DNA of 23,028 bases from an uncultured Sutterella sp. (GCA_946618065.1 CAMOKV010000020.1:1-23028), one strand, 5' to 3'; shown: positions 125 through 23,028, counted from the first letter of the stretch. The notes: generated by a model not told the origin, from the sequence alone. Numbers and translations: made by a program.

Positions 125-1546
125 TTAGCGCGTACGGTTGCGAAGAAGCTCGCGCGGATCAATCGATTCGACGCTCGGACTCTTCGAGACGCTTGCCGCT
201 GCTCCGGCCTGAGAGGCCTGGGCAGCGGACTCCTTCACGGCGGCCGCGGCATCGGCAGACGTCCCCGACACAAGCTTGTCAAGCGGCAGATACAGCAGAT
301 TGCTGCCGTTGCCTGCATCGACAAAGATCTTGCGCGTGCTGGAGAGGATCTCACCCATCGCATCGATGTACATGCGATCGCGCGTGACGCGCGGAGCCTG
401 CTCGTACTGGGCAAGCACCCGGGAGAAGCGCTCGGCATCGCCCTTGGCGGTCTCAACGACCCTCGCCTTGTAGCCCTCGGCCTCCTGCTTCAGGCGTGAC
501 GCCTTACCCTTGGCGATCGGCACCACGGCATTCTGGTAGGCCTGGCCTTCGTTGATCTGGCGCTCCCGGTCCTGACCAGCCTTGACGGCGTCGTTGAAGG
601 CGGCCTGCACCTGCTCGGGCGGCTGGGCATTCTGGATGGCAACGCTCATCACATCGATGCCTGTCTGATAGCGGTCAAGCATGCTCTGCATGATCTGCCG
701 CACATCACGGGCGATCTCCTGCTTGCTCTCAAAGAGCACCGAGTCCATCGCCTTGCGTCCCACCACTTCACGCATGGCGCTTTCGGCCGCCTGCCGCACG
801 GATTCGTCCGGCGCGCGCGTTCTGAACAGGTAATCCTTGGCAAAGCCCGTCTTGATTCGGTACTGCACGTTGAACTGAACATCCACGATATTCTCGTCAT
901 CGGTCAGCATCAGCGCTTCCTTCAGGCGCTGCGCTCCGCCATAAATACCGATCTCAGCCTTGCGAACGCTCGAGATATCGACGATCTCAACATCCTGGAT
1001 CGGCCAGGGCATGCGCCAGCTAAAGCCGGCAGAAGCGTCCCGAGTGTACTTGCCAAACGTCGTAACCACGCCGATCTGGCCTTCGGGAACAATGTAAAAG
1101 CCGCTTGCAGCCCAGGCAAGCACACCAAGCACCACGGCTCCGATGATGCCCTTCACGGGAGAGCCGCCAAGAGGCAGCGGATAGCCGCGCCGCTCCTCGA
1201 TACGCCCCGGAGTCTCTGGCGGCTCGGAACCGCCTCCCTGCCAAGGACGCTCCTCGGGCTCCTCGGGCTGCTCGGGCTGCTCGAAACTCTGCCGCTCGCG
1301 CGCGCCGTTCTGCTGACCGCTCCGGCCTCCGTTCAGGAGTCCCTGGATCGTCTTGTTGAATTCATTCCAAAGTTCATCAAGATCCGAGCCCTTCGGATCG
1401 GAACGCCGCTCACCGCGGTTCTCTTTCTCGGGCTGTTCGGTATTCTGCGGCGGCTGGGCGCTGTCGTTCTGCACCGGATCCTCCCGCCCGGACTGCTTGG
1501 AGTCCTCCGACGGGCCGCGTCCCCAATGCGGGTCATTCAAAGGCAT
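125..1546 (-). CDS. hflK: HflK, SPFH/band-7 modulator of FtsH protease
   Basis: 473-aa ORF with ATG at 1546-1544 and TAA at 127-125. It has a Gly/Gln/Pro-rich N-terminus, a TM segment (IIGAVVLGVLAWAASGFYIV) and an SPFH core. It is collinear with E. coli HflK over the whole length, including the conserved TRERLYIE-like TRDRMYID. Position hfq-hflX-hflK-hflC. Confidence 0.92.
   Translation of the reverse strand: MPLNDPHWGRGPSEDSKQSGREDPVQNDSAQPPQNTEQPEKENRGERRSDPKGSDLDELWNEFNKTIQGLLNGGRSGQQNGARERQSFEQPEQPEEPEERPWQGGGSEPPETPGRIEERRGYPLPLGGSPVKGIIGAVVLGVLAWAASGFYIVPEGQIGVVTTFGKYTRDASAGFSWRMPWPIQDVEIVDISSVRKAEIGIYGGAQRLKEALMLTDDENIVDVQFNVQYRIKTGFAKDYLFRTRAPDESVRQAAESAMREVVGRKAMDSVLFESKQEIARDVRQIMQSMLDRYQTGIDVMSVAIQNAQPPEQVQAAFNDAVKAGQDRERQINEGQAYQNAVVPIAKGKASRLKQEAEGYKARVVETAKGDAERFSRVLAQYEQAPRVTRDRMYIDAMGEILSSTRKIFVDAGNGSNLLYLPLDKLVSGTSADAAAAVKESAAQASQAGAAASVSKSPSVESIDPRELLRNRTR
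1252..1278 (-). repeat. Three tandem copies of a 9-bp unit inside hflK, with a degenerate fourth copy to 1287. Encodes the (E-Q/E-P)n tract EQPEQPEEPEE.
   Basis: The sequence reads cctcgggct / cctcgggct / gctcgggct / gctcgaaac directly. The unit length is a multiple of 3, so copy-number change would keep the frame. Confidence 0.5.
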
Positions 1547-7816: not shown

Positions 7817-9064
7817 CTAACTTTCTTCGGTTTTCTTCTGCCAGCGCTCACGCACGTAGGACTCGATCATGGACTGAAACTGTCCGCTCATCGACTCGCC
7901 CTTCAGTGAGGCCGCCTTTTTCCCATTAATGAACACCGGAGCGACGGGAGACTCCCCTCGCCCGGGCAAACTGATTCCAATATCGGCCGCTGAACTTTCC
8001 CCGGGACCGTTCACAACGCACCCCATCACAGCCACCTTCATCGCTTCGCACCCAGGGCATTGCTCGCGCCACTCGGGCATGCGTGAACGAAGGAATTCCT
8101 GCGTCTGCTGAGCAAGGTTCTGGAAAAGATCACTGCTTGTCCTGCCGCAACCGGGGCAGGAAACAACCACCGGAGCAAACGCCCTGAGTCCCATGGTCTG
8201 CAGGAGCTCCTGAGCAACAATCACCTCGGCCTGACGGCTTTTACCTGGCTCCGGAGTGATCGAAATCCGAATCGTGTCGCCAATGCCTTCGGCAAGCAGA
8301 ACGGCCAGTGCAGCCGAACTCGCCACAATCCCCTTGCTACCGATGCCTGCCTCGGTCAATCCGAGGTGCAGAGCCCAGTCTCCGCTGAGGGCGAGCTGCC
8401 GATAGACGCTCACGAGCTCCTGCACGTCGCTCACCTTCGCAGACAGCACGATTCTGTCGGCTCCAAGCCCAAGTTGCTCGGCCTGCTGCGCGCTCTGAAC
8501 GGCACTTTGGACAATCGCATCAAGAAGCACTTCTCGCGGCTCCTTGGGGCAGGAACTCTCACGGTTACCGTCCATCATCGCCGCAAGCAGCTCCTTGTCG
8601 AGGCTGCCGCCGTTCACACCGATCCGCACGGGTTTGTCGAGCCGTGCGGCGAGTTCGATCATCGTGGCAAAGTTATTCTCATGCGAGGCTCCTTTGCCGA
8701 CATTGCCCGGGTTGATGCGAAACTTCGAAAGAGCCTTCGCACACGCAGGTTCATCAACCAGAAGTTTGTGCCCGTTGTAATGGAAGTCACCCACGAGAGG
8801 AACAAAGCATCCCGCTTCGTCAAGCTTTTCACGGATGTGCGGAACGGCCCTTGCTGCTGCCGGCGTATTGACAGTCAGCCGCACCAGTTCGCTGCCAGCT
8901 CTAGCTAGTTCAAGCACCTGCGCAACGGTCTCACCGATGTCCTCGGTGGCCGTGTTTGTCATCGACTGAACGACAACGGGGGCGCCGCCCCCGATGCTCA
9001 CCCGGCAGCACTCGTGCTGAACCACGACCTGCCGGGAAACGCGACGATCCTTAAAAACGGACAT
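7817..9064 (-). CDS. ispG: IspG/GcpE, 4-hydroxy-3-methylbut-2-enyl diphosphate synthase
   Basis: 415 aa with an N-terminal TIM-barrel segment ([22 protein letters not shown]) and a C-terminal [4Fe-4S] domain with CPGCGRTS...C. The stop is 2 nt from the hisS start. Confidence 0.95.
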
Positions 9065-9082
9065 GTCTGCGTTTGCTCCCGA

Positions 9083-10045
9083 TCAATACATCCTGAAGCG
9101 CACGGTCTTGTCACGCGGAGAAATGAAGCGCTTGTAGTCGAACAACACGTCGTTGAGTTCGACTTCCACTTCCTCGGAGTTGCCGAGAATGACGCGCAGC
9201 GGCTTGATGCCGCGGATCGATCGCGTCGTGCCGGCGGGAACCTCCTGCTCGAACACCGTGCTGTCATCGCCGATGCGGGAAACGCGCACCCAACAGTCCT
9301 GCTTGACGCTCAGGCGGATTCTCACCTCCTTGCGATCGCTCTGGGGAGCGGCAACCTTGTTGTCATCGGGGCGGAATGCAATACCCGGAATATTTTCCTG
9401 AGCCTTGACGACAACAGGTTCAGGCCTGGCGGGCGTGGCGGGAACAGGAGCAAGTGCAGGCTGCGCGTTGTGCCGCACGACGGCAGTCTGCTGCGTCTTG
9501 GCTGCAGCCGCCGGGGCAGACTTGGTCACTTCCTTTTTCACCTCTTCAACCTGAGCGATCGGTCGGGAGGGAACGGGATCATCCCCCATCAGCCCCTTGA
9601 GCATATCCTGACTGACAATCGCCCAAATACCGGCGGCAATAGCGCTGACCAGAATAAGGATCCCAAGAAGACGCCACCAAGGCGAGGGACTCTTGTCCTG
9701 GAACACCTGTTCGGAGGAATAGGCAACCTCGGGAATCTGGTGAGAGCCAAGAGCAAAGGAATCCCCATAGCGACGGTTGAAATCCTCAACGAGCGGCGCA
9801 GGATCGATCCCCAGGGACTTTGCGTAGGAACGGATGAATCCGCGGACATACACAGGCTCGGGAAGTTCCTCAAAATTTTCAGACTCAAGAGCCCGCAACT
9901 GTTTCACCGACATCCGAATGCGTCCCACCATGTCGCCCACGGACAGTCCCTGTGCTTCACGAGCCGCAACCAGCTGGGCGCCAAAACCATTGGCCGGATT
10001 ACGCTCTTCCTGCACGACGACCTCTTCCTGTTTGTTCTCAGTCAT
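9083..10045 (-). CDS. rodZ: RodZ-like cytoskeleton protein (HTH_XRE, TM, Pro/Ala-rich linker, C-terminal DUF4115-like domain)
   Basis: 320 aa with an N-terminal HTH ([34 protein letters not shown]), a single TM helix ([21 protein letters not shown]), a PA-rich spacer and a C-terminal beta domain. Located between rlmN and ispG as in E. coli. Confidence 0.8.
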
Positions 10046-14333: not shown

Positions 14334-15083
14334 TCAATCACCGGCAACCCACGACGCAGTCTGCTTGACCAGTCTGTGTTCGGTCAGATCGATCTGCAGA
14401 GGCGTCACAGAGGCATACCCGTTGGCGGTCGCCCAGAAATCCGTTCCCTCGCCCGCATCCTTCGGAGAGCCTGCCGCACCTAGCCAGTACATGGGCATCC
14501 CGCGCGGGTTGATTTCATGGATCATGCTCTCGGCGTTGTGTCTGCGCCCCAGGCGCGTCGCCTGAACTCCTGCCATGCGCTCATAAGGCATGTTGGGCAT
14601 GTTGACGTTCAACAAAACCGCCTCCTCGGAGTGTTTTCGCTCGAGAAAACGCTCGACGATCACGCCTGCCATCCGCGCCGCGGAGTCCAGTTCCCCCCAA
14701 CCTCTGTCGATCTGGCTGAAGGCAAACGAATCAATGCCGAAGATGTAGCCTTCAATCGCCGCGGCCACCGTTCCCGAATACATCGTGTCATCACCCATAT
14801 TGGCGCCACAGTTGATTCCGGAAACCACCAGGTCGGGCCGCTCGTCAAGAAGTCCCGTCAATGCCAGATGCACACAGTCCGAAGGTGTGCCGCTCACGAT
14901 GAAAAAATCCGGCTCGGCCTTTGTTACCGTGAGCGGACGATTCAGGGTGAGCGAATTGCTTGCTCCGCTATGGTTGTGCTCGGGCGCAACAACGGTTACC
15001 TGGCCGAAACGGGCCATTTCCCTAGCCAGAGCCTTGATGCCCAGAGCCATATAACCGTCGTCATTGCTTACGAGAATCCGCAT
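14334..15083 (-). CDS. surE: SurE 5'/3'-nucleotidase
   Basis: ATG at 15083-15081 gives MRILVSNDDGYMALGIKALA..., the canonical SurE N-terminus with metal-binding DDG. 249 aa. Confidence 0.9.
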   Translation of the reverse strand: MRILVSNDDGYMALGIKALAREMARFGQVTVVAPEHNHSGASNSLTLNRPLTVTKAEPDFFIVSGTPSDCVHLALTGLLDERPDLVVSGINCGANMGDDTMYSGTVAAAIEGYIFGIDSFAFSQIDRGWGELDSAARMAGVIVERFLERKHSEEAVLLNVNMPNMPYERMAGVQATRLGRRHNAESMIHEINPRGMPMYWLGAAGSPKDAGEGTDFWATANGYASVTPLQIDLTEHRLVKQTASWVAGD

Positions 15084-15170
15084 CGGATTGATCCACAAAA
15101 CTTCTGTCCGAAGGCATTCTAAACGAGTCTGACACCGCTCCCATCAGATCCCGCCCCCACTGAAGGGCGG

Positions 15171-15680
15171 TCACCGCATCGGCGCCCCCACCAGAACACT
15201 CTGCCAGAAGGCGACAAACTCCCGCACTCTTGGGGCGTACTCCATCTCATGGAAGTTCGTGCCTGCGTTGGGCAGATTCTCGATCAGTTCGTAGAACCCC
15301 TGCAGAAACCGTTCTGAAACCCAGCCGACAACCTCTGCGTCGGAACTCGGAGCATGACGGCCAGCCTTTTGCAGATCCCCGGAAAACACCTCGCGGATGT
15401 AGTCGGCCAGTCCGCACGGATTCCACCCCTCGGCGCTCGCAAAGTGCTTGTTGCGGCCACAGAAGGTCTCCGTGAACCAGTTCACAAGGCGATCATCGGC
15501 CTGCGCAGCCTCTTGAGGGCTCATATTGCCATCGGAAACCTGCTGCATGCGCCGCAGAGTATTGCGAACCGCCTGCTCGAGGATTCCTCCGACAACGTCG
15601 ATGGATGCCAGATTCGGCTTCCCCGGCTCCCTGCTTGAAAAGTCCCTTGCACAGTGACCGCAATATCCGCACCCAGGCAT
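15171..15680 (-). CDS. Uncharacterised protein orfC (169 aa); paralog of orfA with an N-terminal CGYCGHC motif
   Basis: ATG at 15680-15678 is preceded by GAGGTGGAG 5-13 nt upstream. It starts 10 nt after the orfB stop. An alternative ATG at 15740 has no SD, would overlap orfB by 50 nt and would add a fourth Cys. The protein looks globular; no family recognised. Confidence 0.55.
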   Translation of the reverse strand: MPGCGYCGHCARDFSSREPGKPNLASIDVVGGILEQAVRNTLRRMQQVSDGNMSPQEAAQADDRLVNWFTETFCGRNKHFASAEGWNPCGLADYIREVFSGDLQKAGRHAPSSDAEVVGWVSERFLQGFYELIENLPNAGTNFHEMEYAPRVREFVAFWQSVLVGAPMR

Positions 15681-15690
15681 TTTCTCCACC

Positions 15691-16185
15691 TCAGGCTTTT
15701 GCGGGCAACGCGGCAAGCGCAAAACGCCCCGCCAGATCATCGATGGCAGCCTGCACGCTCTGCTGCGTAGCAGTCGGTTTCTGCACCTCGGTGGAGATCA
15801 GCTCACAGACCTTGCGCGTAAAGGCACTCGTTGCGGCAACCATGACAAAACGCGGATTACTCAGGTCGGCATGCTCCTCGGCATCCTTGATCCTTGCGAA
15901 CATCTCGGGCTCTACGGCCGCAATGCTGAGTGCGCAGGGCATGCCGCTCCAGCCGGGAACGCTCCGGAACTGCGGATTCTCACCCATCAGCGCACGGGCC
16001 AGGTGACGAGCAAGCGCGTCATCCATGTCCCGCGCCTTGTCCGCCTTCATGACCTGTCTTGCCACCTGCACGACCCGGAAAAGGATCTCCGTGCCCGCCA
16101 TGGAGAAAAGCTCCCGCACAACGGCAGGATCGCAGAGGTCATGCACCGTCTCGGATCTGTCCCGTTCGATATCCGTCAGGCTCAT
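15691..16185 (-). CDS. Uncharacterised protein orfB (164 aa)
   Basis: ATG at 16185-16183 overlaps the orfA TGA by 1 nt (TGATG), which indicates translational coupling. Normal, non-repetitive protein-like composition. No family recognised. Confidence 0.55.
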   Translation of the reverse strand: MSLTDIERDRSETVHDLCDPAVVRELFSMAGTEILFRVVQVARQVMKADKARDMDDALARHLARALMGENPQFRSVPGWSGMPCALSIAAVEPEMFARIKDAEEHADLSNPRFVMVAATSAFTRKVCELISTEVQKPTATQQSVQAAIDDLAGRFALAALPAKA

Positions 16186-16676
16186 CAAACCACCAATGGA
16201 AATTTCTGATTCGTGAAGATTTCAGACCACTTCACGCACAGGTCATGCACCTGCCGTGCGTCGCCTTCGGTATTGTCATCTGCATGCCAGCGAAGCGCCT
16301 CGAGCGTCTGATGAACGTCCGACAAAAACTGCAGGCAGGCAAAGAAGGCGGCGGTTCCTGGGCCGTTGAAGTGCCGTGCATCCTCTGCTGAGAGCGCCGC
16401 AAGCTCCCGGGAAAAGCGAAGCCTCAGCCGGGCATCGATCTGCTCGGACGTACTCTTGGTGCGGACTGCAACCTTGGGATTGTCCCCGCACATCGTCGCG
16501 CAGAACCAAGACAGCATCTGCGTGTCGCTTGCAGCTGCTGCCTCGGGGCTGATCTTGCGCTCAACGACCTGAGCCTGCTCCTCAACGATGTGCTCTACGA
16601 ACATGAAACAGAACTGGTACATCGCTCTGATGTCGTCAAGATCGACGGGAGTCTGCTCCTTCGGTTCCTTGCCCAT
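16185..16676 (-). CDS. Uncharacterised protein orfA (163 aa); paralog of orfC
   Basis: ATG at 16676-16674 with AGGAGA 6 nt upstream, 16 nt after the SPFH gene stop. Shares the motif ISPEAAAASDTQMLSWFCATMCGDN with orfC's MSPQEAAQADDRLVNWFTETFCGRN. Confidence 0.6.
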   Translation of the reverse strand: MGKEPKEQTPVDLDDIRAMYQFCFMFVEHIVEEQAQVVERKISPEAAAASDTQMLSWFCATMCGDNPKVAVRTKSTSEQIDARLRLRFSRELAALSAEDARHFNGPGTAAFFACLQFLSDVHQTLEALRWHADDNTEGDARQVHDLCVKWSEIFTNQKFPLVV

Positions 16677-16692
16677 GGCGCGTCTCCTGGCC

Positions 16693-17652
16693 CTACTTCA
16701 CGGTTCCAGTCGGCTTGGGCAGCACAGCCTTTCCGTCGCTAGCCTTCATGATGGTCATTGCCGAAGCAATGAGAGAAGTCATGTCGCCCAAATTAGCCGG
16801 AACGACGAGGGTATTCCCCTGCTTGGCGATCTGGGAGAACGCCTCAACATACTTTTCGGCAACCTTCAGGTTCACGGCGTTCATGCCGCCTTCGTCGGTC
16901 GTTGCCTGCGCAACGCGCCTTAATGCCTCAGCGGTTGCCGTTGCAATGGCAAGCGTCGCGGCTGCCTGGCCTTCGGCCTTGTTGATCTCGGCCTGCTTTT
17001 CACCCTCGGACTTGGCGATTGCCGCTTCGCGGGCACCGGTAGCCAAATTGATCTGCTCGAGCTTGCGGCCTTCAGACGCGGCCACGACGGCGCGCTTTTC
17101 ACGCTCAGCGGTAATCTGCTGCTGCATGGCCTGCAAGATGACTGCGGGCGGCGTGAGATCCTTGATTTCGTAGCGAAGAACCTTCACGCCCCAGTTGAGA
17201 GCCGCCTCATCGATTGCGGACACAACGGACTTGTTGATGAGGTCACGCTCCTCGAATGTCTTGTCAAGCTCCATCTTGCCGATCACGCTGCGAAGCGTCG
17301 TCTGTGCAAGCTGCGTAATGGCGATGATGTAGTTGCTCGTCCCGTAGCTCGCTCTCTGGGGATCGGTCACCTGGAAAAAGAGCACGCCGTCAACTGTGAG
17401 CTGCGTGTTGTCCTTGGTGATGCAGACCTGGCTTGGCGTATCCAGAGGCACCTCCTTCAGACTGTGCTTGTAGGCCACGCGGTCGATGAGGGGAATGATG
17501 ACGTTCAGGCCTGGGCTGAGAACGCTATGAAACTTGCCAAGCCGCTCGACAACCCAAGCCGTCTGCTGCGGCACGACCTTGATGCACTGGCTCACGAAAA
17601 TGACCGCGATCACCAGCAGAACGATCGAAAAGATCAGGAAGTTGGATATCAT
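16693..17652 (-). CDS. SPFH/band-7 stomatin-like protein (QmcA/YbbK-type)
   Basis: 319 aa with an N-terminal TM helix (MISNFLIFSIVLLVIAVIFV), an SPFH domain and an Ala/Glu-rich coiled-coil C-terminus. SD GAAGGGG precedes the ATG at 17652. Confidence 0.85.
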   Translation of the reverse strand: MISNFLIFSIVLLVIAVIFVSQCIKVVPQQTAWVVERLGKFHSVLSPGLNVIIPLIDRVAYKHSLKEVPLDTPSQVCITKDNTQLTVDGVLFFQVTDPQRASYGTSNYIIAITQLAQTTLRSVIGKMELDKTFEERDLINKSVVSAIDEAALNWGVKVLRYEIKDLTPPAVILQAMQQQITAEREKRAVVAASEGRKLEQINLATGAREAAIAKSEGEKQAEINKAEGQAAATLAIATATAEALRRVAQATTDEGGMNAVNLKVAEKYVEAFSQIAKQGNTLVVPANLGDMTSLIASAMTIMKASDGKAVLPKPTGTVK

Positions 17653-17675
17653 TTTTTCCCCTTCTCAAGAACAAA

Positions 17676-18095
17676 TCAGTTATTCGTCAACACCAGCCGG
17701 GAGCCCTCTACCCGAACGATCCGGTAGACGCCGGCAGTGGTCGCCACACCTTCATCGGCAACTGCCGTCCATTGCGTGCCACGGTACTGGACGAGCGCCG
17801 TACCGTCCTCGTTCCACGCTTGAACGCGGACGCTTTGGCCAACATCCAGATTCTGAATCGCATGGGATTCATCATTTTGCTGTCCCCGAAGGTGCCGAAC
17901 GACGAGCCCGCCAATCACCGCAACCGCAGCAAAGGCAAGGCACTGCCAGCCAACCACCAGTCCGAGCCATGCACACCCTGCTGCCGCAAGGCAGGCCGCC
18001 CCGAGAACAAGCAGATAGAACGTGCCGACCAGCATCTCTGCGCCGCACAGGATCAATCCCGCAATCAGCCACATCCACTGAGGTGTCAAGAGCAT
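17676..18095 (-). CDS. NfeD-like membrane protein (short form, YbbJ-type), partner of the stomatin-like protein
   Basis: Two N-terminal TM helices (WLIAGLILCGAEMLVG...), then a C-terminal OB-fold-like beta domain (VGQSVRVQAWNEDGTALVQYRGTQWTAVAD). ATG at 18095 has a GAGG SD; the alternative ATG at 18140 has none. The stop is 24 nt before the SPFH gene start. Confidence 0.65.
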   Translation of the reverse strand: MLLTPQWMWLIAGLILCGAEMLVGTFYLLVLGAACLAAAGCAWLGLVVGWQCLAFAAVAVIGGLVVRHLRGQQNDESHAIQNLDVGQSVRVQAWNEDGTALVQYRGTQWTAVADEGVATTAGVYRIVRVEGSRLVLTNN

Positions 18096-18177
18096 TTTCA
18101 AACCTCGAACAAACCAAGACGACAACGGCGTCGCCACCATTGAAAGTCTAACGACTTTTTCACGGCAATTCGGGACG

Positions 18178-19869
18178 TCAGGCTACGTTTGCCGCCGCGC
18201 CGCCAGAGGCTTCCTGCCCGTGCAGAATATCCTCTCCGTACAGAACAAGATCGTCAGGCAGCAATTCTGCGTAAAGGGCTTTTTCCGGCGCTCGCGCGGT
18301 CCTCACAGCGATGCGCACGCCGGGGTTCATGTCACGAAGAGCTGTGATGATCTCCCGTCCCTTTTCAAACGGCACACCGGAAAGGACGGCGAGGGTCGTC
18401 CTATCGATGTCTGCCTGCTCGATACGACTTCGCTCCGATGTCCTGCCCTCGATCACGCAGATGGCCTGCCCGCCCAGTCTCTCTGACAATTCCGGATTCT
18501 CGGTCAAGAATGTCACAGGCATGCCGGCATGAGACAAAGTCCCGGCCAACTCCATAGCCGCATTGTCGTCACCGACAATGAGTATCTGACTCGGGAGAAC
18601 TTTCTCGACTGAATCACTTTTTTGCTCAGAAGCGTGCCGGCTCGCACTGCTGCGGGCCCAAGTTGAACGCTCAAGTAAAAACCGGTAGACCGGCTCGACC
18701 ACTGCGTACATCAGAGGATTGAGCGCAATGGAAAAAATAGACGCAGCAACGATCATGCTCAGAACATCAGCATCGACCATCCGAAGAGCGATGCCTTGTC
18801 CGACCAGGATGTATGAGAATTCGCCGATCTGCGAAAGGCACGCTCCGATCGTCATGCTCGTCCTGAGCGGATATCTCAGGACGAGAACGGCGAAGGCGGC
18901 AATCATGGCATTGCCAATCATGACGATTCCCAGCACGCAGAGCACATTGAAAGGCTGCTCAAGAAGCACGTGCCAATCCAGCATCATTCCGACGCTCACG
19001 AAAAAGAGCACGGAAAACGCATCCCTCATCGACAGGGAATCCTTCGTCGCTCTCCGGGCAAACCTCGTCTCCTGAACAATGACTCCGGCGAAGAAGGCCC
19101 CCAGGGCGAAACTCACCTCAAACACCGCGGCGGCTACGAATGCAATGCAGATGGCGCAGGCCAGGATCGCAAGCGTAAAGAGTTCCTGAGACTTGGTGTC
19201 CACGATCCACTGCAGCAAAATCGGAATCAGCCTGCGCCCCACGATCAGCATGAGGACGATGAAAGTCATGACGCGCAACAGCGTTTTGCCGATTGTCCAC
19301 GCAATATCTTCGCCGCTTAGAGACGCGCCAGCGTTCACACCGAGGATTTCAGCAATCGGCGGCAACAAAACCAAAATCACGACGGTTGCAATATCCTGGA
19401 AGATCAGCCAGCCCACTGCAATCTGACCTTCCAGAGAAGTAAGCTTGCCGCGCAGTTCAAGAGCCTTGAGCAGCACAACCGTCGATGCGCACGACAGGCT
19501 CAGGCCGAAGATGAGCGAACTTGCCACCGACCAGTCCCAGACAAAGAATGCGAAGCATCCCCAAATCGCCACCGCCGAGACCATCTGCATCAACGCTCCG
19601 GGCACTGCGATCGCTTTGACCCGCATCAGATCCCTGATGGAGAAATGCAACCCGACACCAAACATCAGCAGCATGACGCCAATTTCGGCAAGTTGGCTCG
19701 CCAGCCACATGTCAGCCTGAACAAACTTCGTATAAGGACCGGCGACGATACCGGCGACCAGATAGCCCACGAGCGGGGGGCTCTTGAGCTTTTCGGCCAT
19801 GTAACCGAACACCAAGGCGAGCCCAAAAGCTAAGGAAAAAGTAGTGATGAGGGGCAGGGATGCATGCAT
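18178..19869 (-). CDS. YbaL/KefB-type CPA2 cation:proton antiporter with C-terminal KTN (TrkA-N) domain, paralog 1 (563 aa)
   Basis: N-terminus MHASLPLITTFSLAFGLALVFGYMAEKLKSPPLVGYLVAG...LLMFGVGLHFS aligns closely with E. coli YbaL (MHHATPLITT...SPLVGYLLAG...LLMFGVGLHFS). 12-13 TM helices and a C-terminal Rossmann-like domain. Confidence 0.85.
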   Translation of the reverse strand: MHASLPLITTFSLAFGLALVFGYMAEKLKSPPLVGYLVAGIVAGPYTKFVQADMWLASQLAEIGVMLLMFGVGLHFSIRDLMRVKAIAVPGALMQMVSAVAIWGCFAFFVWDWSVASSLIFGLSLSCASTVVLLKALELRGKLTSLEGQIAVGWLIFQDIATVVILVLLPPIAEILGVNAGASLSGEDIAWTIGKTLLRVMTFIVLMLIVGRRLIPILLQWIVDTKSQELFTLAILACAICIAFVAAAVFEVSFALGAFFAGVIVQETRFARRATKDSLSMRDAFSVLFFVSVGMMLDWHVLLEQPFNVLCVLGIVMIGNAMIAAFAVLVLRYPLRTSMTIGACLSQIGEFSYILVGQGIALRMVDADVLSMIVAASIFSIALNPLMYAVVEPVYRFLLERSTWARSSASRHASEQKSDSVEKVLPSQILIVGDDNAAMELAGTLSHAGMPVTFLTENPELSERLGGQAICVIEGRTSERSRIEQADIDRTTLAVLSGVPFEKGREIITALRDMNPGVRIAVRTARAPEKALYAELLPDDLVLYGEDILHGQEASGGAAANVA

Positions 19870-19918
19870 GTCAAATCAAGCTGTGTCAGGAGCCGTAGCG
19901 CTCTTCTTTGATCTCTTT

Positions 19919-21625
19919 TTAGTCCTCTTGCTCGGCAATCGGCAGGTACTGCTGACGGATCACATTGGCAAGCTGCTCGGCGACCAACTGGTAATCAAGC
20001 AGGACAATGTTCGCCGACGTCTCATCAGCAAAATGTTTTCTGTCCTCTTCATTGTCCACACGCACGACGATGAAGACATTGGGATTGAGTTGCCGGATCT
20101 TCTGGATCGCATCGCCGCCCTCTATGAAGTGCAACCCGGAAATCAGCACGACGCGAGCATTTTCAATATGAGCATTAGCGAGCGTTCCCCGGTCGGTCAT
20201 TTTCCCTTCCACTGCAGTGAACGATGCGGCACGCAGCCGATCAGCCTGCGGCTGGTCCGGCGCAATGCACACGACAGGCAGTCCAGCTTTCATGAAGTCT
20301 CCGGCAAGGCTCTCAGAAACCTCATCGCCGCACTGCAGGACAAGCTGGCTGAGCGGCTCTTTTCTAGGCTTTCGCGATCTGTGAGGATCGTCCCGCATTG
20401 CTGCCGCTCGCGCCCAGGAGAACGTCTGCTGCAGGTGTCTGCTAAGGGGAGCGATGGCAGCAAACATGCAGGGATTTAAAGCAATCGAAAGAATCGATGC
20501 GGCCACGATGAGACTCATCATCTCCGAGCCGACCATTTTCAGGGAAATGCCCTGGGCGGCAAGAATGTAAGAAAACTCGCCGATCTGTGCGAGAGAAGCA
20601 CCGATCGTCAGACTCGAATGAAGCGGATATTTGAGGGAGTTCACAAGGACAATCGCCACAATGGACTTGCCCACCATGATGATGAGCAGGACGCACAACA
20701 CGGTAAGTGGCCGCTCGATCAGGACATGCCAGTCAAGCATCATGCCAACGCCCACGAAGAACAAAACGGCAAATGCGTCCTGAAGCGAAAGCGAATCGAC
20801 GGCAGCACGCTTGGCAAATTTGCTCTCCTGCATCACCACGCCGGCAAAGAAGGCGCCCAGAGCAAAACTCACTTCAAAAATGGCCGATGCTAAAAACGCA
20901 ATTCCGATCGCACAGGCAAGAATCGACAAGGTGAAGAGTTCGCGCGAGCCCGTCTTGATCACAAGCTGCAGCCCCAGAGGGATGAGCCTGCGCCCTACAA
21001 GCAGCATGAGCGCAATGAACGCCACAACGCGAAACACCGTCTCGCCAATCTTGAACACAATGGCCTGCCATCCCAACGGCTCTGCACTGCCAATGCCAAG
21101 GATTTCGGCAACGGGGGGCAACATAACAAGGATCACGACCGTTGCGATGTCCTCGACCACCAGCCATCCCACGGCGATCTGACCGTCCGGAGAATTGAGC
21201 TTGCCGCGCAGTTCGAGCGCCTTGAGCAACACCACCGTAGATGCACACGACAGGCTGAGACCGAAGACCAGCGCGCTGGCAATCGACCAGTTCCACACGT
21301 AAAACGCAAACACACAGCCGAGAACCGTAGCTATCGCCATCTGAAGCACTGCTCCCGGAACTGCCACGCTTTTCACGCGCATCAAATCACGGACGGAAAA
21401 GTGAAGACCGACTCCAAACATCAGCAGCATGACGCCGATTTCAGAAAGCTGACTCGCGAGCCACAGATCGGCAACCGGCCCCCACGTGTAGGGGCCCACG
21501 GCAATGCCGGCAAACAGATAGCCAACAAGAGGAGGACTCTTCAGCCGTTCCGCAATGTAACCGAACACCAGCGCCAGACCGAACGCAAGTGCAAATGTTG
21601 TAATCAGGGGAAGAGATGCATGCAT
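19919..21625 (-). CDS. YbaL/KefB-type CPA2 antiporter with C-terminal KTN domain, paralog 2 (568 aa)
   Basis: ATG at 21625 gives MHASLPLITTFALAFGLALVFGYIAERLKSPPLVGYLFAG... About 70% identical by eye to paralog 1 across the membrane domain, with a diverged C-terminal domain. The ORF-track 35-aa N-terminal extension was rejected because both paralogs share the MHAS start. Confidence 0.85.
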   Translation of the reverse strand: MHASLPLITTFALAFGLALVFGYIAERLKSPPLVGYLFAGIAVGPYTWGPVADLWLASQLSEIGVMLLMFGVGLHFSVRDLMRVKSVAVPGAVLQMAIATVLGCVFAFYVWNWSIASALVFGLSLSCASTVVLLKALELRGKLNSPDGQIAVGWLVVEDIATVVILVMLPPVAEILGIGSAEPLGWQAIVFKIGETVFRVVAFIALMLLVGRRLIPLGLQLVIKTGSRELFTLSILACAIGIAFLASAIFEVSFALGAFFAGVVMQESKFAKRAAVDSLSLQDAFAVLFFVGVGMMLDWHVLIERPLTVLCVLLIIMVGKSIVAIVLVNSLKYPLHSSLTIGASLAQIGEFSYILAAQGISLKMVGSEMMSLIVAASILSIALNPCMFAAIAPLSRHLQQTFSWARAAAMRDDPHRSRKPRKEPLSQLVLQCGDEVSESLAGDFMKAGLPVVCIAPDQPQADRLRAASFTAVEGKMTDRGTLANAHIENARVVLISGLHFIEGGDAIQKIRQLNPNVFIVVRVDNEEDRKHFADETSANIVLLDYQLVAEQLANVIRQQYLPIAEQED

Positions 21626-21649
21626 TCTGACGACTGACCGGGAAACTTG

Positions 21650-21678
21650 AGTATCAAACTGCGCTGGACAAAGGCAAA
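21650..21678 (-). promoter_or_regulatory. Candidate sigma70 promoter for ybaL paralog 2 (TTTGCC-17 nt-GATACT on the minus strand)
   Basis: -35 at 21678-21673 and -10 at 21655-21650, with 17-nt spacing, about 25 nt upstream of the ATG. Hexamers found by eye only. Confidence 0.25.
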
Positions 21679-21829
21679 CGAACTTTTGGGCGGCGTAGCT
21701 AATCATGTACAGGCAAAGGAGCAAACACACAACCGACCGTTCGCACCTTCGCCCTGTTTTGTTATGAATTATGCGCGAGGAATTCGGGTTTTCCTAGGGG
21801 AAAATCTAAAAATAATGTCTCAGTCCACA

Positions 21830-23028
21830 CTATCGGTTCGGCCATGCCTCGTCGGGGAGCAAAATTCCGGGGTTCATGATTCCCTTGGGATCCAGAGCCT
21901 TCTTGATCGCCACCATCACGGCCAATTCCGCCGGATTCTTCAGTTTGAGAAAATGGGCCCGCTTCAGCCTGCCGATACCATGCTCGGCCGAAATCGACCC
22001 GTTGTGCGCCGCCACCCGCTCGTAGACGATTTCACGGATGCCCTCTTCATTTTCAAAGGCGAGCTGATACGGAATCGAACCGATATTGAAGTGCAGGTTG
22101 CCGTCCCCCAGGTGTCCGTACACGGAAGGATCCAGCCACGCATACTTGGCATACAGCCGCTCGAGCGTTTCATCCACGAAGTCTGGAATCTCACTGATCT
22201 GGATGCTCACGTCATTGTGCAGATTGTTGCCCACATGAGCGTCAGCGCTCGGAATGGATTCGCGAATCGACCAGATGGCTCGGTTTTCCTTAACCGAATT
22301 GGCAATCACAGCATCGACGACTAGCCCTTCCTCAAAGGCCTTCTCAAGAATCGTCTCAAATGGGTTGACTTCCGGTTCACGCGGATAACTAAGCTCGACA
22401 AGGCACCACCAAGGGGCGGAGGACACATCGGCTGTGACATGTACGGCCGGGATCTCCTTGGCAACCCGCTCGATGCATTTTCTCATCATGAGCTCAAAAC
22501 CGGTCACTGCGGAACCGGTTTCGCTCTTTAATCTTGCAAGCAACTGAGCCGCCTTATGAGCATCCTCAACGCCGATCAACGCTACATAGATCGCCTGCGG
22601 GATCGGGAAGAGCTTCACGACGGCCCGCGTGATCACGCCCAGCGTTCCTTCACTGGCAAGAAACAGATGTTTGAGGTCATAGCCTGTATTGTCCTTGCGC
22701 AAGCCGCGCAGCATATTGATGACGGTGCCGTCGGCAAGAACAACCTCCAAACCAAGGACCAGTTCACGCGTGTTGCCGTAGCGCAGAACCGCCGTACCGC
22801 CGGCATTGGTCGCAAGACAGCCACCCAGGCACGCCGTGCCCTGCGCGGCAAAACTGAGAGGAAAGAGTCTGCCGGCATCCCGCGCCGCAGCCTGAGCCTT
22901 CTCAAGCACCACCCCTGCCTCCACAAGCATCGTGTCATTGATGGGATCAATGTTCTCGACCTTGTTCATGCGCGTAAGCGACAGCACGATGGATCGTCCC
23001 GAATCATCAGGAACGCTGCCGCCGACCA
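21830..23028 (-). CDS. FAD-linked oxidase (GlcD / D-2-hydroxyacid dehydrogenase family), C-terminal about 400 aa; N-terminus lies beyond the right edge
   Basis: The frame stays open to the window edge (…VGGSVPDDSGRSIVLSLTRMNKVENIDPINDTMLVEAGV…). PCMH-type FAD-binding segment, then the FAD-oxidase C-terminal domain (…GDGNLHFN…ISAEHGIGRLKR…). Confidence 0.8.
   Translation of the reverse strand, partial: VGGSVPDDSGRSIVLSLTRMNKVENIDPINDTMLVEAGVVLEKAQAAARDAGRLFPLSFAAQGTACLGGCLATNAGGTAVLRYGNTRELVLGLEVVLADGTVINMLRGLRKDNTGYDLKHLFLASEGTLGVITRAVVKLFPIPQAIYVALIGVEDAHKAAQLLARLKSETGSAVTGFELMMRKCIERVAKEIPAVHVTADVSSAPWWCLVELSYPREPEVNPFETILEKAFEEGLVVDAVIANSVKENRAIWSIRESIPSADAHVGNNLHNDVSIQISEIPDFVDETLERLYAKYAWLDPSVYGHLGDGNLHFNIGSIPYQLAFENEEGIREIVYERVAAHNGSISAEHGIGRLKRAHFLKLKNPAELAVMVAIKKALDPKGIMNPGILLPDEAWPNR

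Follow-up and report, generated by a model that had tools for sequence, protein, structure and literature searches.

The window analysed here, a stretch of 23,028 nt from an uncultured Sutterella sp. (CAMOKV010000020.1:1-23028; GCA_946618065.1), encodes two adjacent membrane transporters, referred to as A and B, which are paralogous antiporters of the YbaL/RosB-like branch of the CPA2 family. Both genes lie on the minus strand. Gene A, the upstream paralog (19919..21625), was called as an open reading frame (ORF) of 568 amino acids and keeps the ancestral-type ion site; gene B, the downstream paralog (18178..19869; 563 amino acids, also an ORF call), carries an altered one. A spacer of 49 bp (19870..19918), read directly from the sequence, separates the two genes. 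The reading frame of A stays open further upstream, up to a GTG at 21730; its start was placed at 21625 because the MHAS beginning that results is common to all homologs and is matched in Escherichia coli YbaL, which begins MHHATPL. The A protein is 100% identical to a protein encoded in a Sutterella sp. metagenome-assembled genome. In both products residues 1-395 constitute the membrane (transport) domain (20441..21625 in A, aligned to KefC residues 12-392 and to NapA; 18685..19869 in B), which is followed by a linker and by a C-terminal domain with a KTN/RCK fold, recognised with AlphaFold2 and Foldseek (residues 427-568 of A, 19922..20347; residues 428-563 of B, 18181..18588).

The family assignment relies on several profile matches. 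Pfam Na_H_Exchanger (PF00999) matched A with 178 bits and B with 170 bits (gathering cut-off 26.2), covering profile positions 3-372 of 375, which places both proteins in the CPA superfamily, and TrkA_N matched their C-terminal domains with 43 and 26.3 bits, respectively, both above the gathering cut-off of 23.8. The best NCBIfam model for the two proteins was that of the YbaL family (NF007950 equivalog), aligned over the full length, and their best named matches were all CPA2 proteins (YbaL, KefC, KefB, and MagA). The definition of the RosB-like short Kef homologs (PMC10224563) also fits these proteins, which are 568 and 563 residues long and have C-termini located 10-25 residues past the last KTN helix. 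The Kef-type C-terminal helix-loop-helix extension that frames the glutathione cleft was not present in the alignments of either A or B, and the gene located upstream of A encodes a flavin adenine dinucleotide (FAD)-linked oxidase and not a KefF/KefG partner.

The BLASTP alignment of A with B spans 555 residues, contains one gap and shows 57% identity (E = 0). This identity is very unevenly distributed: it reaches 69.1% across the membrane domain and falls to 24% in the linker and 24.6% in the KTN domain. A first-pass annotation of the window, made from the sequence by a model, had estimated about 70% identity through the membrane domain and strong divergence of the C-terminal regulatory domains, and both estimates agree with these values. 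It had also described the genes as a retained tandem duplication of YbaL-type antiporters, which is borne out by the distribution and phylogeny of the pair. The tandem arrangement with identical neighbours occurs in four lineages, namely the window, L087/L088, L083-L086 (same species as L001) and L089. In a neighbour-joining tree with 100 bootstraps, support was 100% for A and B together as well as for each of the two clades taken separately, and the species order ((window, L087), L083), L089 was recovered in both the A and the B clades. Since the two clades are fully supported and mirror each other in species order, the topology indicates one tandem duplication in the common ancestor of the four lineages, a Sutterella subclade. 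About 25 further Sutterellaceae species loci have one antiporter gene only, with the same NfeD and SPFH genes after it, and these single copies are nearer to A (54-58% identity) than to B (47-53%). Loci L034-L080, which correspond to distant Comamonadaceae CPA2 genes (26-30% identity), were excluded.

Between the window and L087, its closest relative, identity amounts to 89% for A and 77% for B, and B is the faster-evolving copy. For the same pair of loci the ratios of nonsynonymous to synonymous substitution rates (dN/dS, Nei-Gojobori) were 0.04 for the membrane domain and 0.11 for the KTN domain of A, and 0.08 and 0.13, respectively, for those of B; these values are only approximate because dS between the closest orthologs (0.9-1.6) is near saturation, though they are far from neutrality. 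Both C-terminal domains are thus under purifying selection (dN/dS about 0.1), and neither the two copies nor their C-terminal domains are decaying.

The divergence of the C-terminal domains is most evident at the glycine-rich loop. The peptides quoted for this region in the first-pass annotation were all located (ILIVGDDNAAMELAG in B, VLQCGDEVSESLAG in A, and LLVGYGRVGSLLG in E. coli YbaL). In a gapless alignment with E. coli YbaL, KefC and relatives, G-Y-G-R-V-G of YbaL corresponds to C-G-D-E-V-S in A (20315..20332) and to G-D-D-N-A-A in B (18556..18573), the coordinates of both loops having been checked, and the helix that follows the loop begins at the same position in the AlphaFold models of A and B. 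Pfam TrkA_N placed G433 of B on the column of the first motif glycine (G1), while the alignment of A to this profile begins past the loop, at profile position 8. No GxGxxG was present in A or B in any register, including the shifted ones that were tried, so that the degenerate dinucleotide-binding motif proposed for both proteins stands, and no shift of the alignment restores the canonical form. The more specific statement that both paralogs keep only the first glycine is correct for B, in which G1 is the sole one kept, and has to be amended for A, where Cys stands at G1 and all three motif glycines are missing; the only Gly of its loop occupies an x position and is replaced by Ser or Asn in the three A orthologs.

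The consequences of these changes can be evaluated in light of the structural information available for the family. The KTN domains of YbaL (3FWZ) and VpRosB (3C85) were crystallised with adenosine monophosphate (AMP) (PMC10224563), which is a structural and inhibitory cofactor of YbaL/Kef KTN domains, reduced nicotinamide adenine dinucleotide (NADH) being secondary (PMC10224563, PMC11150392). In KefC, AMP is required for RCK dimerisation and docking onto the transporter, and it is held by R409, D429, H430, D449, D472, and R496 in addition to the glycine loop (PMC11150392). Pocket states were mapped in eight sequences, comprising four A and four B orthologs. The second motif glycine (G2) is Asp in 7/8 and the third (G3) is Ser or Ala; the position of KefC R409 is occupied by E, Q, A, N, K or I and that of D429 by Ala, Ser or Thr. 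The position of D449, the adenine-binding Asp, is charge-reversed to Lys or Arg in 8/8 (K475 in A, 20201..20203; R476 in B, 18442..18444, assigned by alignment with coordinates checked) and remains Asp in single-copy orthologs. Conversely, the R496 equivalent is retained and is invariant across the whole alignment, meaning that out of the KefC contacts R409, D429, D449, and R496, three of the four are replaced in A and B and only the last is kept; in a count of five mapped contacts, four are replaced. In addition, the "GE" glutamate reported as 100% conserved among YbaL orthologs (PMC6957272) lies at a position that reads D-Y in A and is variable in B. Because the glycine loop and all but one of the mapped AMP contacts are replaced, the loss of canonical AMP or NAD binding in A and B is a well-supported inference. 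The loss or alteration of NAD(H) binding that had been predicted from the motif is sustained by the loop and the KefC contacts as far as the loss is concerned, with the correction that the documented ligand is AMP. It can further be speculated that a salt bridge forms between the Asp found at G2 (D434 in A, D435 in B) and the Lys or Arg that has replaced D449.

The degeneration of the pocket extends beyond the duplicated genes. The canonical loop was found in 0/34 Sutterellaceae YbaL-like proteins from species-representative genomes. Among family representatives having the domain (clusters at 50% identity) the pattern G.G..[GA] was present in 82/100 and absent in 18/100, and approximately 14 of these 18 are independent clusters outside Sutterellaceae. 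Loops of the kind GSGSVT, GTGEVS, GTCAVN and GEGVVS are seen in single-copy orthologs, from which G3 and the equivalent of R409 are missing, while G1 is kept, G2 is usually kept and the Asp at the D449 position is preserved. Since these orthologs already lack G3 and the R409 equivalent, erosion of the pocket began before the duplication, as a trait of the family Sutterellaceae that is not special to the pair. It advanced furthest in the A/B ancestor (common G2 to D and D449 to K/R changes) and continued independently in each copy. The loss of the loop and the pocket is a lineage-wide trend in a known family, with parallels elsewhere in this family and in classical RCK domains.

A second and more distant group of Sutterella YbaL-like proteins (609-746 amino acids; L025-L033) also has degenerate loops and is not located beside NfeD/SPFH genes. 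Loops in this group include GYNEMV, GMDERV, GIPEGA, and GGSEAS (an example is L028 of Sutterella wadsworthensis DSM 14016, 8001-9629), and several of its members have QD on transmembrane helix (TM) 5 together with Thr at the position of the TM10 lysine. Another single-copy Sutterellaceae-like homolog of 617 amino acids (P0062) combines the loop GSSREL and, as in A and B, Lys at the KefC D449 position (FGKPDD) with an ED+K ion site; it may be an intermediate stage in the loss of the adenine-binding Asp or a case of parallel loss.

The membrane domains are much better conserved and differ at the ion-coupling site, a feature that was absent from the first-pass annotation and that is the most useful new point to emerge from this analysis. 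In A, the ED motif of TM5 (E158-D159, CPA motif positions 6 and 7; 21149..21154) aligns to KefC Q155-D156, and the TM10 lysine (K320, CPA motif position 8; 20666..20668) aligns to KefC K307. B has a QD motif on TM5 (Q158-D159; 19393..19398), as KefC does, and N320 in place of the TM10 lysine (18910..18912). In total, only 22 differences separate the A and B clades in fixed form, and E158Q and K320N, both fixed in 4/4 B orthologs, are two of them. The ED motif is conserved in all A orthologs, and ED+K occurs in all NfeD-linked single-copy orthologs, for which reason the state of B is the derived one. In a sample of 150 family representatives, ED+Lys was found in 108, QD with T/N/I/M/C in approximately 14 and QD+Lys in 8; the combination of QD with a residue other than Lys represents a coordinated loss of the acid-lysine pair.

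According to a rule proposed for electrogenic CPA2 antiporters, Glu-Asp on TM5 and Lys on TM10 are required for two-proton exchange, and CPA2 members lacking either are expected to be electroneutral (PMC6181914); KefC, with its QD motif, has been read as electroneutral (PMC11150392). A displays the electrogenic pattern (E158, D159, K320) and B departs from it (Q158, D159, N320), and based on this rule and on the reading of KefC, electrogenic exchange is predicted for A and electroneutral exchange for B. The two proteins have the same unwound-helix motif, SCAST, whose Thr at position 4 is predicted to fit K+ selectivity.

Despite the loss of the motif, the fold of the C-terminal domains is retained. 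AlphaFold2 models built on an alignment of 21 sequences showed the full six-strand beta-alpha (Rossmann-type) topology in both, with a mean predicted local distance difference test score (pLDDT) of 89.5 for A and 86.6 for B. Foldseek retrieved 3FWZ, the KTN domain of E. coli YbaL, as the top match of the A domain (E = 4e-10), followed by the MthK RCK domain and 3LLV, and for the B domain the best matches were the MthK RCK domain, 3FWZ (E = 4e-7) and the RCK domain of E. coli Kch (1ID1); the matches to 3FWZ, MthK, and Kch ranged from E = 1e-7 to 1e-10. A and B combine a Rossmann-type fold and a TrkA_N match with the absence of the GxGxxG loop. KTN domains have been told apart from RCK domains by the GxGxxG motif (PMC10224563), and because this criterion demands the motif for a KTN domain, the modelled C-terminal domains of A and B count as RCK-type by it. 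The last RCK helix of B is about 13 residues shorter than that of A, and the B protein ends in a disordered, low-confidence Ala/Gly-rich tail (...HGQEASGGAAANVA; 18181-18230, minus strand); B orthologs end alike (...AAASA, ...AAAAQ).

The genes that follow the pair are also encoded on the minus strand. An NfeD-family gene (17676..18140; Pfam NfeD) is located 37 bp downstream of B, and next to it lie a stomatin-like SPFH/Band_7 gene (16693..17652; Pfam Band_7 and Band_7_C) and three tandem small ORFs (16185-16676, 15691-16188, and 15171-15683, encoding 163, 165, and about 170 amino acids, respectively). At the duplicated loci the order is FAD-linked oxidase, A, B, NfeD, SPFH, the three small ORFs, surE and nlpD. 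NfeD and then SPFH follow the antiporter gene in about 25 Sutterellaceae loci (L001-L024, L027), with SPFH proteins 80-96% identical across Sutterellaceae loci; this linkage was absent beside the canonical YbaL genes of E. coli and Ferribacterium. The first-pass annotation had named the products of these neighbours as possible regulators of the antiporters, and the conserved antiporter-NfeD-SPFH order is compatible with a functional link. The order amounts, however, to a single observation that is not phylogenetically independent, and single-copy species have it just as much. Nor does it track the state of the loop, given that the loops of the second Sutterella group are degenerate although these neighbours are missing there. 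Literature searches, one for papers treating SPFH, NfeD and cation antiporters together and a broader one on SPFH proteins, found no published link between SPFH or NfeD proteins and cation antiporters. The small ORFs are distant mutual paralogs (BLASTP E about 1e-7) with no match in Pfam or NCBIfam. The middle one had 19 homolog clusters among 5.8 billion proteins, all of them Sutterellaceae-like hypothetical proteins; the small ORFs are restricted to Sutterellaceae, and their place after NfeD and SPFH is kept in most Sutterellaceae loci.

Regarding expression of the pair, the A-B spacer measures 20-43 bp in the other three lineages, and in a scan of 15000-22100 no minus-strand terminator was detected in either the A-B or the B-NfeD gap; promoter and terminator counts in this interval were near those expected from shuffled sequence. 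No Rfam family was detected anywhere in the window, the 204-bp leader upstream of A included. A and B are probably co-transcribed, as judged from this arrangement. Attention had also been drawn to a palindromic start context (MHAS) in both genes. In the window A and B do begin with ATGCATGCAT, but the palindrome is not conserved in the DNA of the orthologs, which start with ATGCACGCG, ATGCACGCA, ATGCATGCC, and ATGCACGCT and vary at synonymous third positions. On account of this variation ATGCATGCAT was rejected as a signal; the palindrome simply follows from the codons for M-H-A, which both paralogs inherited.

The rest of the window contains housekeeping genes, all on the same strand (hflX, der, bamB, hisS, ispG, rodZ, rlmN, surE, and nlpD). 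A further SPFH/Band_7 protein of 473 amino acids, HflK-like, is encoded at 125-1546 (minus strand) and adjoins an HflX-type GTPase gene (1681-2901); since it adds to the SPFH gene at 16693-17652, the window encodes two different SPFH proteins. On the other side of the pair, the flank of the window ends inside the oxidase gene, at 22987. In L087 (1770-3122) and in L088 (284-1636) a group II intron-type reverse transcriptase gene (RVT_1 and GIIM) is located just upstream of the FAD-linked oxidase gene.

Altogether, the evidence makes it likely that A and B are a co-transcribed CPA2 pair produced by one duplication, with nucleotide-independent RCK modules and diverged ion sites. In the proposed scenario, a tandem duplication in the ancestor of a Sutterella subclade would have given rise to two proteins, each built of a 13-TM transport domain with NhaA fold and a C-terminal RCK-fold domain. 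Loss of the AMP/NAD pocket would have been under way in Sutterellaceae before this event, leaving its determinants essentially gone in both paralogs, and the C-terminal domains would most likely serve dimerisation and regulation as RCK-type modules that need no nucleotide, and not as AMP-loaded KTN domains. A, with Glu-Asp on TM5 and Lys on TM10, would carry out two-proton electrogenic exchange, and B, with Gln-Asp and Asn, one-proton electroneutral K+/H+ exchange. Of this, the data demonstrate the paralogy, the phylogeny, the motif states, the retained fold and the purifying selection; the loss of nucleotide binding, K+/H+ as the substrate, the difference in stoichiometry and co-transcription are inferences drawn from them.

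A number of observations weigh against this explanation or parts of it. The scores of A and B remain under the cut-offs of the specific family models (511.8 and 454.3 against an equivalog cut-off of 700 for NF007950; 192.5 and 189.9 against a curated cut-off of 238.3 for the CPA2 model TIGR00932), and the function of E. coli YbaL itself is not established (PMC10224563). The rule used to predict electrogenicity has an exception in the mammalian NHA2 clade (PMC6181914). The phylogeny was obtained by neighbour-joining only, and the near saturation of dS mentioned above affects the estimates of selection. As for the pocket, the invariance of the R496-equivalent Arg together with the intact fold would allow an anionic ligand or a non-canonical nucleotide pose, and 3LLV, a KTN-like protein with a GSEAAG loop, was deposited as an "NAD(P)-binding domain," which means that a degenerate loop alone is no proof of lost binding.

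The last two points are also the basis of an alternative in which nucleotide binding (AMP, NAD(H) or other) persists in both C-terminal domains through a non-canonical loop and regulation is essentially YbaL/KefC-like. The TrkA_N gathering score is still passed by both proteins, the Arg of KefC that binds the AMP phosphate (R496) is among the residues retained and the fold is predicted with high confidence. Nevertheless, four independent contact classes are altered together: the glycines G2 and G3, the equivalent of R409, the acidic residue that binds ribose, and the adenine-binding Asp, whose charge reversal is fixed throughout the eight sequences of A and B. An Asp at G2 would put a carboxylate at the phosphate site, and the model of B is at least as similar to nucleotide-free RCK domains (MthK, Kch) as to 3FWZ. 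Taken together, these points make persistent nucleotide binding quite unlikely. A different alternative proposes that A and B form an obligate heterodimer in which B is a modulatory or altered-stoichiometry subunit, the diverged RCK domains pairing with each other and not with themselves. CPA2 antiporters and KTN domains work as dimers (PMC11150392), the two genes have stayed tightly linked in four lineages (spacers of 20-49 bp with no terminator-like site), their phylogenies mirror each other, and the last helix of B, which joins the subunits in KTN dimers, is shortened. This idea is nonetheless regarded as unlikely, considering that all the solved CPA dimers retrieved are homodimers, that A and B each keep a complete transport site of their own and that tandem paralogs are often simply co-regulated. 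An elaboration of it, consisting of a heterodimer of electrogenic and electroneutral protomers whose nucleotide-free RCK domains respond to another input (a small ligand or an NfeD/SPFH membrane cage), is improbable.

Finally, the faster evolution of B in every ortholog comparison and its TrkA_N score, barely above threshold, could be taken to mean that B, or both KTN domains, are decaying after the duplication, as a redundant copy that is becoming a pseudogene. This is scarcely credible: the reading frames are intact in four lineages with near-saturated synonymous sites, dN/dS is low in the membrane and KTN domains of B alike, and decay of B is ruled out on these grounds; moreover, the B fold is predicted with confidence and the ion-site changes of B constitute a coordinated pair that recurs elsewhere in the family.

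YbaL/RosB-like antiporters are widespread, and for the related KefC the current view is that dimer stability and docking depend on AMP bound to the KTN domain. An entire family in which the pocket is dismantled and the domain is still under selection would suggest that the domain can work without nucleotide, and the Sutterellaceae orthologs would provide natural nucleotide-free variants for study. The A/B pair, whose membrane domains are 69% identical and whose clades differ by only 22 fixed changes, the coordinated E158Q and K320N among them, offers a small natural system in which to examine what determines electrogenic vs electroneutral exchange in CPA2. If the heterodimer of electrogenic and electroneutral protomers were true, it would let the cell switch the stoichiometry of H+:K+ exchange. 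The current understanding of these transporters is not overturned by the present evidence, which extends known themes and describes a modest, fairly ordinary variation on a known transporter family.

The closest known systems are E. coli YbaL and Yersinia RosB, which have the same architecture as A and B, a CPA2 membrane domain plus a single KTN-fold domain in about 560 amino acids with no Kef extension, and share with them a full-length identity of 38-42% and the N-terminus MH(A/H)(S/T)xPL. YbaL and A have the ED+K ion site in common, but YbaL preserves GYGRVG and crystallises with AMP (PMC10224563), whereas the loops of A and B read CGDEVS and GDDNAA, respectively, and substitutions have occurred at the other AMP contacts; furthermore, the Sutterella gene is tandem-duplicated and NfeD/SPFH-linked, unlike YbaL of E. 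coli or Ferribacterium. The E. coli glutathione-gated K+/H+ exchanger KefC (8BXG, 3L9W) shows the same CPA2 fold (E = 3e-32); it shares QD on TM5 with B and, like A and B, has a regulatory domain of the dimeric RCK type. However, KefC keeps K307 where B has Asn, it needs AMP for RCK dimerisation and docking (PMC11150392), and its C-terminal extension, glutathione-binding residues and KefF partner have no counterpart at the A/B locus. MthK and E. coli Kch (1ID1) exemplify Rossmann-type RCK folds without GxGxxG, as in the A and B domains, and MthK is regulated without nucleotide, but these domains belong to K+ channels and form octameric gating rings, MthK binds Ca2+, and their identity to the A and B domains is only 16-21%. 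Within the antiporter family itself, other YbaL-like clusters with degenerate loops (P0121, GEGPMV; P0123, GAPDTV; P0125, GVNEVV; P0170, GYNAIT) have lost the glycine motif independently. These clusters consist of uncharacterised metagenomic proteins with substitutions other than those of A and B, and several of them also combine QD with a residue other than Lys at position 8, like B.

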